Counted from the stretch's first letter, positions 58,726-64,000 are shown. The stretch is 64,000 nucleotides of DNA from Candidatus Aenigmatarchaeota archaeon (GCA_016432325.1 CP066684.1:128001-192000), one strand, 5' to 3'. Made by a program: numbers and translations. Notes: generated from the letters alone by a model not told the origin.

Positions 58726-61700
58726 ATGGCCGTTTCTGTCATACAAGTGGGGTACAAGGCAGACCAGCGCGACCCTGACGGGGAAAAGACGCTGCGCGAG
58801 TTGCGCAACGCGGGTTTGCGTGTCGAAGACGTCCGCGTGCTCAAGAACTATCGAATCGAGTCAGACCTGCTACAGGACGAACTCGAGCGCCTCACGCGTG
58901 GACTGTTCTTGGATCCTATAGCACAGCAGGTCTCTCTCAACGAACCTCTTGACGTGCCCGCTGACGCAGCCGTAGAGGTCGCATTCAAGGGGGGTGTGAC
59001 GGATAGGGAAGGCCGCACGGCGCAAGAAGCCATCTCGGACTTTCTCGGCAGGTCGTTTGAAGGGAAGGTATACACATCAGCAGAATATCTTCTCAGAGGA
59101 GGTTTAACAGACGCTGAACTCGAACGCGCCTCCTCGATGCTGCACAATTCGCGGATAAAGGATGCCACGGTAACGCGCACACGGGAACTGAGAACCGCCG
59201 TGCCGCATGTTGACGGCGCCCATGAGATACGCGTGGATACAGTAGACCTCAACGTATCAGACGAACAGTTATTGTCCATAAGCAAACGCGGCACCCTCTC
59301 TCTTGATTTGAAAGAAATGAAAACAATGCAGGAGCACTTCGTGAGACCAGCAATCGTCCAGGAGCGCGTCTCCATGGGCTTCCCTGTCGCGCCCACTGCC
59401 GCAGAAATCGAGATACTCGCGCAGACGTGGTCCGAACACTGCAAACACAAGATATTCAACGCCGTGGTCGATTACACGAATCTGGATACGGGCGAATCAC
59501 GTACCATAGACAGCCTCTTTGAGACATGCATCAAAGGGCCGACAGAACGCGCGATGAAGCGCGGACGCACGCCGATAGTCGTCGCATTCAAGGACAACGC
59601 AGGCATCGCAACGTTCAACAAGGGCTGGAACTACTGCGAAAAATTTGAGTCGCACAACCACCCGTCCGGCTTGGACGGGTACGGTGGCTCGATGACAGGG
59701 CTTAACGGAGTTCAGAGAGACATATTAGGAGCCGGTCTAGGCGCTAAGCTGATAAGCGGACATTTTGCCTACCATTTGGGCCCCCTGGACTACGAAGGCC
59801 CACTCAAATCGAGGTTCCACCCAAGGGATCTTCTGTCCGCCATCCATAAAGGAGTCGTGGACGCCGGAAACCAGACGGGCATCCCAACCACGAACGGTTC
59901 TGTCCGCACGGACCTCGGTTGGCTCGGTAAACCGGGCGTTCTTGTCGGCGCCAGAGGAATAATGCCTGCAGAGATAAACGGCCGACCGAGCCACCTTAAG
60001 GAAATCAGACCGGGTTACGCTGCTATCATGATTGGTGGTCGCGTCGGCAGGGACGGCATACACGGCGCGACAGCGTCCAGCGGTGGTCTGCATAAGGAGT
60101 CGCCGACATCGTCTGTCCAGCTCGGGGATCCGATAGTGCAGAAGAGGGAAATGGACCTCCAGATGGAAGCCCGTGATAGAGGCTACTATACGGGTGTCAC
60201 AGACTGCGGTGCTGGCGGTCTTAGCTCGAGCATTGGCGAGACAGCGCAGCTTAGCGGAGGAGCAGAAGTTGACACAAGTGTCGTGCCCCTAAAGCACGGG
60301 TTCCTTCAGCCAGATGAGACTATCGTTTCTGAATCCCAAGAACGCATGGTGGTAGCTGCTCCTCGGGAGAATGTGCCGGCCTTCCTCGAACTCTCGCGAA
60401 AGAGACATGTCGAATCCACGGTGGTCGGCAAATACACAAACACAGGCAAGTTCCACGTCCACCATGGAGGCAGGCCTGTCGCGTATCTGGACATGGAGTT
60501 CCTGCACAACGGCGCGCCGCGCAAGCGACTTGAGGCAGAATGGAGAAAGCCAGTCAACCCGGAGCCGAGGTTCGCCCGTTCTTCGGGGAGGCGGCTTGAC
60601 GAGGAACTATTGATGCTCATGTCAAGACCCAATCTCGCCAGCATAGAGGTGCTCATGCGTCAGTACGATCACGAGGTTCAGGGCGGCAGCGTCATCAAAC
60701 CCTTCGTTGGTAAGAATCGAGACGTCGCGAGCGACGCTGTCGTGCAGAGGCCTCTTCTGGATTCGATGGAGGGTCTTGCTTTCAGTCAGGGAAGCAACCC
60801 AGACCTGAGCCGTATCGACACGTATCACATGGCTACGAACGCGATGGACGAGGCTGTACGGCGCGTCGTGGCCGTGGGCGCTCCTCTCAGGCGGCGCGAC
60901 GGCAAGGATAATATTCTGGTCAACGACAACTTCTTCTGGCCTTCGCCACTCTTCGACGCCAAGAATAACCCGGATGGTAAGTACAAGATGGCCCAACTCG
61001 TCAGGGCGAACGAAGGTCTCGCCGCTTATGCGCAGTCAATGGGCGTTTGGCCATTTTCAGGAAAGGACAGCATGTCAATGGATAGCGAACACGACGACGG
61101 AACAGGAAAGATAACAAAGGTTTCGGGCTTGCCAATGCTCCTCATCTCAGCCAGCGCCAAGGTCGAGGACGTGCGCGACTGCGTGACAATGGACTTCAAA
61201 CAGAAAGGCGATGTGGTTTACATTGTCGGCAAGACAGACGGCCGGATGGGCGCGTCAGAGTTTGCGTTGATGAACAGCGAGAATGCTATAGGCAACGATG
61301 TTCCAGAGGTTAACTTCCGCACGTCCAGGCGCACTTACGCGCGAACGCACGACGCGATAGCTCGCGGGCTCGTAAGCTCTGTTCACGGCTGTTACAAAGG
61401 AGGTTTGGCTGCTGCGCTCGCGCAGAGCGCAATTGGCGGCGATTGCGGCGTGTCGGTAGATATCGGTTCCTATGCGGATGTCTGCGGTACCACAGATGTC
61501 GAGACGCTCTTTGCAGAGACGCCTTCGCGTTTCGTGGTCAGCGTCTCGCAGGAGCGTGCCAGAGCGTTCGAGCGTCTCATGGGACCCGTTACGGCTGCGA
61601 AGATAGGGCATGTGAATGGAGGGGCCAGATCGGTGGACGTGAGCTTCTATGGGCGTCATATCATAGAAACGGAGACGCAAGAGTTGCGAGACGCATCCAA

Positions 61701-61740
61701 ATCGACATTCAAGAGTTGGGAGTATGAACCGAAAGCCTAG
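58726..61740 (+). CDS. purL: FGAM synthase PurL with fused PurS-like N-terminus
   Basis: AQTWSEHCKHKIF, KFESHNHPS, GRDGIHGAT, DCGAGG, SESQERM, QYDHEVQG, SGKDSM. Confidence 0.95.
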   Translation: MAVSVIQVGYKADQRDPDGEKTLRELRNAGLRVEDVRVLKNYRIESDLLQDELERLTRGLFLDPIAQQVSLNEPLDVPADAAVEVAFKGGVTDREGRTAQEAISDFLGRSFEGKVYTSAEYLLRGGLTDAELERASSMLHNSRIKDATVTRTRELRTAVPHVDGAHEIRVDTVDLNVSDEQLLSISKRGTLSLDLKEMKTMQEHFVRPAIVQERVSMGFPVAPTAAEIEILAQTWSEHCKHKIFNAVVDYTNLDTGESRTIDSLFETCIKGPTERAMKRGRTPIVVAFKDNAGIATFNKGWNYCEKFESHNHPSGLDGYGGSMTGLNGVQRDILGAGLGAKLISGHFAYHLGPLDYEGPLKSRFHPRDLLSAIHKGVVDAGNQTGIPTTNGSVRTDLGWLGKPGVLVGARGIMPAEINGRPSHLKEIRPGYAAIMIGGRVGRDGIHGATASSGGLHKESPTSSVQLGDPIVQKREMDLQMEARDRGYYTGVTDCGAGGLSSSIGETAQLSGGAEVDTSVVPLKHGFLQPDETIVSESQERMVVAAPRENVPAFLELSRKRHVESTVVGKYTNTGKFHVHHGGRPVAYLDMEFLHNGAPRKRLEAEWRKPVNPEPRFARSSGRRLDEELLMLMSRPNLASIEVLMRQYDHEVQGGSVIKPFVGKNRDVASDAVVQRPLLDSMEGLAFSQGSNPDLSRIDTYHMATNAMDEAVRRVVAVGAPLRRRDGKDNILVNDNFFWPSPLFDAKNNPDGKYKMAQLVRANEGLAAYAQSMGVWPFSGKDSMSMDSEHDDGTGKITKVSGLPMLLISASAKVEDVRDCVTMDFKQKGDVVYIVGKTDGRMGASEFALMNSENAIGNDVPEVNFRTSRRTYARTHDAIARGLVSSVHGCYKGGLAAALAQSAIGGDCGVSVDIGSYADVCGTTDVETLFAETPSRFVVSVSQERARAFERLMGPVTAAKIGHVNGGARSVDVSFYGRHIIETETQELRDASKSTFKSWEYEPKA

Positions 61741-62584
61741 GGTTGCCGTGCTGACAGGAGACGGGATAAACTGCGAGGTCGAGATGGCCTACGCCTTCCG
61801 ACTTGCGGGCGCGCAAGCCGACATCATACACCTGACAGACCTGTTCAACGGGGACAGGACGCTCGAACCGTACCAGATGCTTGGGCTTCCCGGAGGCTTC
61901 CATGCGGGTGATGATCTCTGTTCTGGCAAGGTTCTGGCCAACCAACTGCGCACGAAGCTGCGCGAACCTCTCGCGGAGTTCGTTGAAGACGGAAAGCTCA
62001 TGATCGGAATATGCAACGGTTTCCAGGCTCTCGTGCGCGCGGGGATGCTGCCTGCAACGGACGGCATAGACTGGAAGAGCGACGACCCGCAGGTTTACCA
62101 GCAGGCGACGCTCGCGGCGAACGACTCCGGCCGTTTCGAAGACAGGTGGGTTACTGTACGAACTCCCACTATGCTGGAAGAGCTCATCGATACAGATGGT
62201 CCTGTCACGCCCTTCACAAAGTACGTGCGCCAGATCGATTTGCCCGTTCGCCATGGAGAGGGCAAGTTCGTATCTTCCAGAAAAATGATGGATAAGATGT
62301 GGAGCAACAGGCAGATATCATACCTATACGCCAACCCATGCAGTGGAGAAAGGACGGCCGGCTATCCGTGCAACCCCAACGGAGCGATGGACGACATCGC
62401 TGCGATTTCAGACCCCACAGGACGCATCTTCGGCATGATGCCGCATCCCGAGGCTTACAACCACCCCACAAACCACCCCGACTACACGCGCTGGCCCAGA
62501 GAGAAGAGGCGGGCCATGAAGGAAGGCGAAGGCATAGCCATTCTGCGCGGCGGAGTGGAATATGCGCGAGAGCGGCTGCTTTAG
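61724..62584 (+). CDS. purQ: FGAM synthase glutaminase subunit
   Basis: GINCE.E, PGGF..GD, GICNGFQ, HGEG, GMMPHPE. Confidence 0.96.
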   Translation: MNRKPRVAVLTGDGINCEVEMAYAFRLAGAQADIIHLTDLFNGDRTLEPYQMLGLPGGFHAGDDLCSGKVLANQLRTKLREPLAEFVEDGKLMIGICNGFQALVRAGMLPATDGIDWKSDDPQVYQQATLAANDSGRFEDRWVTVRTPTMLEELIDTDGPVTPFTKYVRQIDLPVRHGEGKFVSSRKMMDKMWSNRQISYLYANPCSGERTAGYPCNPNGAMDDIAAISDPTGRIFGMMPHPEAYNHPTNHPDYTRWPREKRRAMKEGEGIAILRGGVEYARERLL

Positions 62585-62591
62585 AAATTAT

Positions 62592-62700
62592 TGGAGCGGG
62601 GGTTGGGAATTGCACCCAAGTAGATCCGCTTTCCGGCATGTCGGAAAATCGCGTTTCCGCACGCCTGCAGGCGGACGCATAGCTGCTCTGCCACCCCCGC
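62592..62700 (-). tRNA. tRNA-Cys(GCA) with a 34-nt intron at 37/38 (62631-62664) and encoded CCA
   Basis: GCGGGGG/CCCCCGC acceptor stem, U73 then CCA, TCCGC/GCGGA anticodon stem, CT-GCA loop, TTGGG/CCCAA T-stem; 75 nt after intron removal. Confidence 0.92.
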
Positions 62701-62701
62701 G

Positions 62702-64000
62702 TCACTTGATGAAACGCCACCTCGGGCCTTCCGACGTATCTTGGACTTCAATTCCGTACTGGTCCAAGAGCCTCTTCCGCAGCTCGTCCGCGGCCGTGAA
62801 GTCCTTCTGCTTCCTCATCTCTTCCCTCTGTTCGATAAGCTTCTTAACCTCGGCGGGTAGAGGGCGTTCCTCTTTTCTGAGTACGGCAAGGACACTGTCA
62901 AAGTCGTGCATTGTGTCGAGTACTCGCTGCGCGTCGCGGGAAGCCATCGCCTTCGTTTCGAGCAGCTTGTTGATGGAACCCACGAAGTGATGCAGAGATG
63001 CCCACATCTCCGGCACGTTAAGGTCATCGTCCATCGTGCGCTCGAACTCTTTGCGCACCTCGGCGACCAGCTTGCGTACGGCTGTACTGCTCTTCCCGTT
63101 CTTGTGACGTGCGAGCCGATCCATGAACTCGTCGAGCTTGTCGAGCGTGTTCGCGGCGTTCTTCAGCGACTCCCAGCTGAAAAGCTGCTGCGTGCGATAG
63201 TGCGCGGTCAGGTAAAAAAACCTCAGCTGGCGCGGCGTGAACGTTTCGTCGATAACGCTCTGCAACCGCAGGAAGTTCCCTTTGGATTTTGCCATCTTCA
63301 AAGGCCGGGCCTTTGAAGTTTCCGACCAATTGTCGGAAATTTTTGTGTCGCTCACGTTCAGGAATTCGCAGTGGAACCAGTACTTGGCGAAAGGACGGCC
63401 TGTGGCCGCCTCGCTCTGCGCGATTTCATTCGTGTGGTGTACGGGTATGTGGTCTATGCCTCCGGCATGTACGTCGAGCGTGCGTCCCAGATACTTCATT
63501 GCCATCGCAGAGCACTCGATGTGCCAGCCGGGGAATCCTCGGCCCCAGGGCGAGTCCCATTCCATGTGGCGTAGCGTGCCCGCAGGAGTGAGTTTCCACA
63601 GCGCGAAGTCCGTGGCGTTGCGCTTGCCTGCCGTGACCTCGACGCGCGCGCCTGCCTTCAATCCTTCGATGTTCAGGCGCGCCAGCTTCCCGTAATCCTT
63701 GAGCCTGGACGTATCAAAGTAGACTCCATCGCGTATCTTGTATGTGTAACCCTTGCGTTCGAGAGTTCTGACGAGAGTAATCTGTTCACTTATGTGGTCT
63801 GTCGCGCGGCACCAGATGTCAGGCATGAGTGCGCCCAGAAGCTCCAAGTCGTTCTTGAAGACCTTCTCGTAAAACGCAGCAATATCCCAGGCGCTCTTAT
63901 GCTCGCGCTGCTCGGCGACTACCATCTTGTCCTCTCCCTGATCGGCGTCATCGGTCAGGTGCCCGACGTCCGTGACGTTCGTGACGTGCTTGACGCGGAA
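62702..64000 (-). CDS. cysS: Cysteinyl-tRNA synthetase (5' end outside the window)
   Basis: NVTDVGH, DFALWK, WDSPWG.G.PGWHIECSAM, GGIDH..HH.NE.AQ, KMAKS, HYR. Confidence 0.97.
   Translation of the reverse strand, partial: FRVKHVTNVTDVGHLTDDADQGEDKMVVAEQREHKSAWDIAAFYEKVFKNDLELLGALMPDIWCRATDHISEQITLVRTLERKGYTYKIRDGVYFDTSRLKDYGKLARLNIEGLKAGARVEVTAGKRNATDFALWKLTPAGTLRHMEWDSPWGRGFPGWHIECSAMAMKYLGRTLDVHAGGIDHIPVHHTNEIAQSEAATGRPFAKYWFHCEFLNVSDTKISDNWSETSKARPLKMAKSKGNFLRLQSVIDETFTPRQLRFFYLTAHYRTQQLFSWESLKNAANTLDKLDEFMDRLARHKNGKSSTAVRKLVAEVRKEFERTMDDDLNVPEMWASLHHFVGSINKLLETKAMASRDAQRVLDTMHDFDSVLAVLRKEERPLPAEVKKLIEQREEMRKQKDFTAADELRKRLLDQYGIEVQDTSEGPRWRFIK
63296..63340. repeat. 45-nt double-palindrome in-frame insertion in cysS
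   Basis: CTTCAAAGGCC-G-GGCCTTTGAAG directly abutting TTTCCGAC-CAATT-GTCGGAAA. Confidence 0.85.

Follow-up and report, generated by a model that had tools for sequence, protein, structure and literature searches.

The cysteine--tRNA ligase gene (cysS) of a Candidatus Aenigmatarchaeota archaeon carries, directly ahead of the codons for the catalytic KMSKS loop, a copy of a dispersed and mobile family of twin-hairpin repeats, an origin that the first-pass annotation of this DNA had missed. We consider it likely that this copy is a selfish element that is translated, and that the enzyme tolerates the product as a loop of 15 residues. The stretch of DNA studied here, referred to below as the window, comprises 64,000 nt; the genome to which it belongs is designated G000, and a second genome from the same genus is designated G001. 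On the minus strand of the window, cysS occupies positions 62702-64000, where it encodes the C-terminal 432 residues of the enzyme (CysRS), and it runs past the window end; the full gene (L001:1498-2973, minus strand) has 491 codons, and its product contains the Pfam domains tRNA-synt_1e, DALR_2 and CysS_C. The insert (63296-63340, minus strand) is 45 nt long, lies in frame, and encodes ISDNWSETSKARPLK, which corresponds to residues 280-294 of the 491-residue protein, with the minus-strand reading ...FLNVSDTK-ISDNWSETSKARPLK-MAKSKGNF. Its 15 codons are free of stops and stand directly ahead of K-M-A-K-S, the form that the KMSKS motif takes in this enzyme, whose codons occupy 63284-63298 (minus strand). 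Formally, the insert ends with the first lysine codon of the motif (AAG), and the methionine codon adjoins the element; M295 and K297 are both invariant in the CysRS alignment (A2). Because the letters A, AA or AT are shared at its two ends, the boundary of the insert can slide by up to 3 nt.

The insert consists of one copy of the twin-hairpin repeat and one additional nucleotide. Hairpin 1 (63296-63318), which we call the CTTC type, is a perfect inverted repeat of 11 bp with a single base at its centre and forms the 3' hairpin in the mRNA; the same stem type is found in the copies at C1:582364, 10279 and 524971 of G000. Hairpin 2 (63319-63339), of the TTTC type, has a perfect 8-bp stem with a loop of 5 nt and forms the 5' hairpin in the mRNA. 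The two stand back to back, with 19 bp perfect in all, and the predicted RNA fold of the region consists of exactly these two hairpins. The first-pass annotation had described an exact 45-nt double-hairpin insertion just before KMSKS, composed of an 8-bp and a perfect 11-bp palindrome placed back to back, and this description is borne out by the sequence, by the reading frame and by alignments of homologues. Neither palindrome was found again within the 64-kb window, where the number of matches expected by chance is 0, and no copy of the 45-mer or of either hairpin occurs elsewhere in G000 within four mismatches, loosely similar palindromes aside. Rfam returned no family match at E <= 1 for window positions 60000-64000.

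The family became visible only through a scan for structure, and not through a search for sequence copies. Perfect hairpins with stems of at least 9 bp number 123 in G000 against about 40 in a Markov control, those with stems of at least 8 bp number 288 against 150, and back-to-back pairs of hairpins number 67 against a single one in the control. The stem words that recur in the hairpins of G000 are CTTCGAAC, TTTCGAAC, CGGAAAC and CTCGGAAC. At more than 20 loci the same layout is seen, with a CTTC-type hairpin followed, directly or after TA, by a TTTC-type hairpin, the whole measuring about 44 nt; the cysS insert is a typical member of this layout. The consensus is roughly CTTCGAAC-loop-GTTCGAAG followed by TTTCGAAC-loop-GTTCGAAA. 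RNAalifold, applied to 20 aligned copies, recovers both stems, with compensatory double changes at 11 of the 15 pairs and almost no broken ones. A covariance model (R1) built from this 20-copy alignment matches about 34 distinct loci in G000, the one in cysS included, which scores 51.8 bits with E values of about 3e-10 to 4e-9; within the window, the family model matches the cysS site at E = 2.8e-10. A chance origin of the double hairpin in cysS is excluded.

The distribution of the family is that of a repeat that moves. R1 has 29 matches in the same-genus G001 (0.5 Mb, 73% complete) and one to eight in each of nine other genomes of the order, and none in the 19 genomes searched from other orders of the same class. 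More distant copies retain the twin hairpin, their stems being richer in A+T, with TTGGAA in place of TTCGAA. Codon-usage scoring places the majority of copies between genes or at gene ends. Where copies of G001 have syntenic flanks in G000, the G000 locus is without a twin hairpin in four cases out of five, and the copies must therefore turn over quickly.

The comparison with other CysRS, which the first-pass annotation had called for, reveals an empty site at the corresponding position throughout. All 29 relatives examined from the same order and class have an exact 15-residue gap immediately before KMSKS, and a loop of the same length is present in none of them. The same exact gap recurs in the 119 nearest proteins of a database of 5.8 billion proteins, of which the closest has 64% identity, and the solved CysRS structure 8qhp_A likewise aligns with an exact gap in place of the 15 residues. 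Taking out the 15 codons thus restores the canonical spacing, as had been claimed, when judged against the 29 relatives and 8qhp_A alike. The nearest orthologue (64% identity) combines the empty site with conserved synteny of cysS and tRNA-Cys on its contig (L103), and no copy matching the family model was found on the 4.4 kb of that contig. In G001, which is 73% complete, no CysRS match was found. Some bacterial CysRS have 5-14 extra residues a few positions upstream, within the same beta-hairpin, and the site therefore tolerates variation in length.

The insertion in cysS is not the only one within a gene. In G000, a copy lies within the DEAD_assoc domain of an Lhr helicase (L039:2900-2945, equal to G000:C1:316899-316944, minus strand), where the insert is 48 nt long and encodes the 16 residues LRSDASKYLKPDGFQN; the alignment shows an exact gap there for the orthologue in G001 (74% identity across this region) and for 18 other relatives. 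G001 has a 48-nt in-frame insert in the gene of a family-B DNA polymerase (PolB; L097:1500-1546), to which a 16-residue gap corresponds in the G000 orthologue (69% identity), and a 16-residue in-frame insert in a secreted protein (L102:1547-1593), which again faces a gap of 16 residues in an orthologue from G000 (47% identical). A further in-frame copy of G001, in a class-I aaRS (L094:1570-1616), is too diverged from the genes of G000 for an empty-site comparison. The four in-gene inserts with a verified empty site measure 45, 48, 48 and 48 nt, and all are multiples of three. Among about 58 copies in the two genomes, we found none that breaks a frame, that is, none with strong coding signal to its left in one frame and to its right in another. 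One candidate for such a copy, which overlaps the stop of ScpA and the start of ScpB (L047:3715-3760, equal to G000:C1:839214-839259), was rejected, as Pfam shows two complete and separate genes whose ends it overlaps. Removal at the RNA level would make the frame irrelevant, and the chance of finding four out of four in frame would therefore be about 1/81. The consensus contains few stop codons in any frame, and that the copies are free of stops is therefore little informative. Copies within genes run either with or against the host gene and are read in different frames; cysS and lhr both lie on the minus strand, and the R1 match is on the plus strand in the former and on the minus strand in the latter.

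With respect to the protein, AlphaFold2 (using an alignment of 44 sequences) predicts a confident CysRS fold with a pTM of 0.86 and a mean pLDDT of 86. In this model, residues 280-294 form a coil whose pLDDT drops under 50 over 281-289, and confidence is high elsewhere in the catalytic domain. No second CysRS and no SepRS was found in G000, and the gene must therefore be functional. We thus suggest the following sequence of events. A twin-hairpin element of about 44 nt would have landed in cysS directly upstream of the methionine codon of KMSKS; given a length of 45 nt and no stop in the frame used, cysS would have stayed open and the element would be translated; and the product would be a hydrophilic, disordered loop of 15 residues at the tip of the beta-hairpin ahead of the KMSKS loop. 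The mRNA most likely keeps the insert and the peptide is most likely made. Of the two interpretations that the first-pass annotation had offered, a tolerated peptide or a small mRNA intron, the former gains support from the open frame, from this being the sole CysRS, from the coil on an otherwise intact predicted fold, and from the in-frame sister copies. The enzyme would tolerate this loop, and the best reading of the twin-hairpin element is therefore that it is selfish DNA and not an adaptation. A position beside the catalytic KMSKS loop is nevertheless surprising for a neutral insert. Both hairpins are still perfect, which implies either a recent insertion or selection on the structure; the latter, if it has occurred, would hint at a role at the level of RNA or DNA.

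Several alternatives have to be weighed against a translated and tolerated selfish element. The most trivial one, that assembly or sequencing produced a spurious palindromic insertion, has some appeal in that palindromes can arise from chimeric reads and that all of the data come from one study. We regard its probability as close to nil. The Logan contigs of four DNA runs, assembled separately, span 62600-64000 at word depths of 12 to 131 and show neither a difference nor a gap, which also answers the earlier call for DNA support; all four runs belong to one groundwater study and possibly include the source samples of the assembly, and the support that they give is therefore not fully independent. 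Since the insert is unchanged in the contigs of all four, it is no artefact of a single assembly; moreover, the family of which it is a member is represented by dozens of copies across two genomes. The insert is real DNA. If so, it might be spliced. The twin hairpin could be a very small intron that EndA cuts as a relaxed, non-BHB substrate, or that another RNase cuts, with subsequent ligation of the exons, in which case a canonical CysRS would be translated from the mature mRNA. The host lends itself to such an explanation. G000 is a single archaeal contig of 875 kb with 56% G+C, 90% complete, and fits a DPANN-type archaeon, as do the genomes of its relatives (0.5-1.3 Mb). Its detectable tRNA genes number only 8 (RF00005) to 10 (ARAGORN -i), with 8 of the 10 found by ARAGORN interrupted, and its 16S gene (C1:637095-639272, L031) is 2178 nt long against a model of 1478 positions; few and interrupted tRNAs together with a long 16S imply many introns or inserts in stable RNAs. 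One gene for the splicing endonuclease EndA is encoded (PF01974 match at C1:849784-850062, 97 bits), and such a setting makes removal at the RNA level more plausible than it would be in most archaea. Furthermore, tRNA-Cys(GCA), which lies directly downstream of cysS (62592-62700, minus strand), has a 34-nt intron at 37/38 whose hairpin has TTTCCGACA in common with the insert; taking out the 45 nt restores the spacing of CysRS exactly; and in an Asp/Glu racemase at C1:812661 the removal of 34 nt yields the start MRIGVLGG..., which hints at possible splicing of mRNA. The boundaries of the insert, however, lack a bulge-helix-bulge (BHB) motif. We scanned for a 4-bp helix in which each strand is followed on its 3' side by a 3-nt bulge, the cut falling after the second base of that bulge. 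The two registers that remove exactly 45 nt score 4: three of the four central pairs form, and flanking helix pairs are absent (h = 0, h' = 0). The tRNA-Cys intron, which served as control, scores 13-14, its outer helix having five or six pairs and its inner helix four or five. This agrees with the earlier remark that no clear BHB is seen at the ends of the insert, and it leaves the small-intron interpretation unsupported. The two perfect local hairpins occupy both ends of the insert and would compete with pairing between exon and intron. Under relaxed criteria, other in-frame candidates were rejected, as none offers both flanking helices or a sensible protein, and the best of them, a removal of 30 nt, would delete the K-M of KMSKS. 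In addition, each of the four in-gene copies with a verified empty site has a length divisible by three, and no frame-breaking copy was found, a regularity that splicing would not need; relative to its host genes, the element is found in either orientation. No run recorded as RNA was listed as containing this DNA. Taken together, we think it improbable that the element is an intron.

Nor does the ribosome appear to skip the insert. In a programmed translational bypass, take-off would occur at the AAA lysine codon before the insert and landing at the AAG lysine codon at its end, and the near-matched lysine codons flanking the 45 nt in cysS, the stable hairpin that begins 1 nt past the putative take-off codon, and the isoleucine codons (ATC and ATT) similarly found at the ends of the PolB insert of G001 would all fit. 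In Lhr, however, the codons at the two ends of the copy do not match (GGT ... AAC), every copy is open and in frame although bypass would not demand this, and the gap in cysS has neither a stop codon nor a frame break after the take-off codon, and ordinary elongation is therefore the default; a bypass here strikes us as very improbable, though less so than an artefact. More credence, of the same low order as for an intron, can be given to the suggestion that the hairpins of cysS are themselves functional, as a binding site for a protein or as a pause or attenuation signal for CysRS synthesis, with the peptide as a by-product. The stems are perfect in spite of lying in coding sequence, covariation within the family is strong, and the architecture is conserved across the order while the stems shift from TTCGAA to TTGGAA types. 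Against this, no relative has anything at this site in cysS, the copies lie in unrelated genes or, mostly, between genes and turn over fast between congeners, and the loops are unlike the anticodon arm of tRNA-Cys. Finally, there is a small chance, comparable to that of the intron, that the family represents a new class of archaeal micro-element that is removed or skipped post-transcriptionally and does so without a BHB. This would entail either structure-guided cleavage followed by ligation or ribosomes hopping over stacked hairpins; cysS, lhr and polB would then be expressed in canonical form despite their inserts, and the twin-hairpin architecture found across the DPANN order would reflect dedicated machinery of the host or of the element.

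If the insert is a selfish repeat that is translated, then the question arises of how such a repeat spreads. In G000 (90% complete) there is no PF01797 match to a Y1 (RAYT/IS200) transposase, and neither a TnpB zinc ribbon nor a reverse transcriptase was found. As neither a transposase nor a reverse transcriptase was found, host factors that read the shape of DNA or RNA may be involved. A MITE would be marked by a target-site duplication and by kinship with an autonomous IS element. Across 22 copies of the family there is no excess of flank repeats, and the boundaries of the insert in cysS have at most 1-3 nt in common; two larger hairpin inserts at tRNA 3' ends, described below, do have flanking repeats, of 9-10 nt. 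We also considered that the insert had been built from host target sequence, and rejected this, because the longest words that the element shares with its flanks, and the flanks with each other, do not exceed those shared with random segments of the genome. In cysS the longest is a 6-mer (p about 0.3-0.5), and the outcome is the same for 20 of the 22 copies. The short similarities between the insert in cysS and its own flanks are CGACA and CAAAGG. Many copies, that in cysS included, adjoin ATG on one side (GAAG|ATG), which may reflect a target preference.

Comparison with known systems places the element by kind and not by membership. REP and REPIN elements are bacterial, are mobilised by RAYT (Y1) transposases and are rarely found inside genes. 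The archaeal repeat is similar in being a short imperfect palindrome, in forming doublets, and in having many mainly extragenic copies with compensatory changes; it differs in that the conserved GTAG-type head is not seen and in that copies are present within genes. As no Y1 transposase was found in G000, assignment to a REP/RAYT system was rejected. In mitochondria, Allomyces carries double-hairpin elements (DHEs). Fungal and sponge mitochondria are known to have GC clusters and repetitive hairpin-forming elements (PMC4478555, PMC2800124). Like these three kinds, the archaeal repeat is a very short mobile unit of two hairpins without a transposase of its own, mostly intergenic and occasionally in genes, which in mitochondria are those for rRNA or protein; the setting differs, being a free archaeal genome rather than an organellar one, and so does the consensus of the stems, which is unrelated. 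By analogy of architecture, the element most resembles these mitochondrial elements.

The closest known kind is the Rickettsia palindromic element (RPE). According to Ogata et al. 2000, as summarised in PMC10969869, RPEs are selfish palindromic repeats that lie in frame in housekeeping genes. Both are dispersed palindromic families with in-frame copies in unrelated genes and with presence or absence between related genomes, and RPE copies are translated as extra peptides that are compatible with the fold, whereas here the peptide is predicted only. RPEs are bacterial, measure about 100-150 bp and encode a conserved peptide, as opposed to about 44 nt, two independently covarying hairpins, different frames and both orientations in the archaeal element; because length and host domain differ, we claim likeness in kind only and not membership among the RPEs. 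Introns with a BHB motif are known from archaeal protein genes, as in cbf5 of Crenarchaeota (PMC2738675). The insert in cysS is comparably short, its removal restores a canonical protein, and the host has EndA and many introns in tRNA and rRNA; however, there is no bulge-helix-bulge at the boundaries in cysS, and the sister copies are always in frame. It is not an intron of the cbf5 type, because this defining motif was tested for and not found. Bypass elements include those of T4 gene 60 and the mitochondrial 'byps' of Magnusiomyces (mentioned in PMC8211752), and with them the insert has in common that a hairpin-forming mobile sequence of 27-55 nt is inserted in coding sequence, with near-matched codons at the ends in the case of cysS. 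Those elements, however, break the frame or carry a stop, whereas the insert in cysS is open and in frame. In a literature search, no description of such repeats in DPANN archaea was found.

What we observe is an ultra-small archaeal genome that has been colonised by a structured repeat of 44 nt. The finding is broader than cysS, as the family is also in frame in Lhr (G000) and PolB (G001), and it indicates that such a repeat can enter essential information-processing enzymes (CysRS, Lhr and PolB) in frame without destroying them. If the copies are indeed translated, this would extend the phenomenon of selfish DNA in coding genes from Rickettsia and mitochondria to DPANN archaea, and twin-hairpin copies would supply conserved proteins with loop insertions specific to a lineage. 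The in-gene copies would also serve as natural maps of insertion tolerance for these enzymes. For annotation they are a warning, because inserts of this kind can pass for introns or for functional loops.

In the course of this analysis we also noted other hairpin-bearing inserts and arrays in the same genome. The reading frame of the Asp/Glu racemase (G000:C1:812661-812700) has no usable start codon, and removal of 34 nt right after an out-of-frame ATG yields MRIGVLGGIGPEAT; the flanking helices look weak, and the 34-nt stretch is a possible mRNA intron. The intron of tRNA-Cys has a relaxed BHB with three of four central pairs, and the T-loop of this tRNA is TGCAATT; the gene was missed by Rfam and by ARAGORN run without the intron option. 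On the contig of the nearest CysRS homologue (L103), the tRNA-Cys has instead a twin-hairpin insert of roughly 57 nt in its T-loop. Multi-hairpin inserts of about 85 nt lie downstream of tRNA-Ile (G000:C1:830062-830160) and at an apparent tRNA 3' end near the rRNA genes (C1:641100-641210); they are flanked by a direct repeat of 9-10 nt of the tRNA 3' end (GGGTCCACCA) and also hold a stretch that is complementary to the tRNA 3' end. A second, conserved repeat consists of three hairpins (TTTAAAACGCC..., CTTACGAAC... and TTTGCGAACC...) followed by TACCG and occurs in both orientations at six loci at least (G000:C1:13806-13896, 273227, 370026-370097, 448810, 607607-607678 and 837964). A third kind of array has the conserved linkers GTGCA or GTGTA, then a hairpin, GCATG, a second hairpin, and TGCAC or TACAC, and is found at G000:C1:441671-441755, 467541, 516003, 529506, 652676, 703831, 758971-759059 and 851746; its layout is like that of the tRNA-Cys intron.
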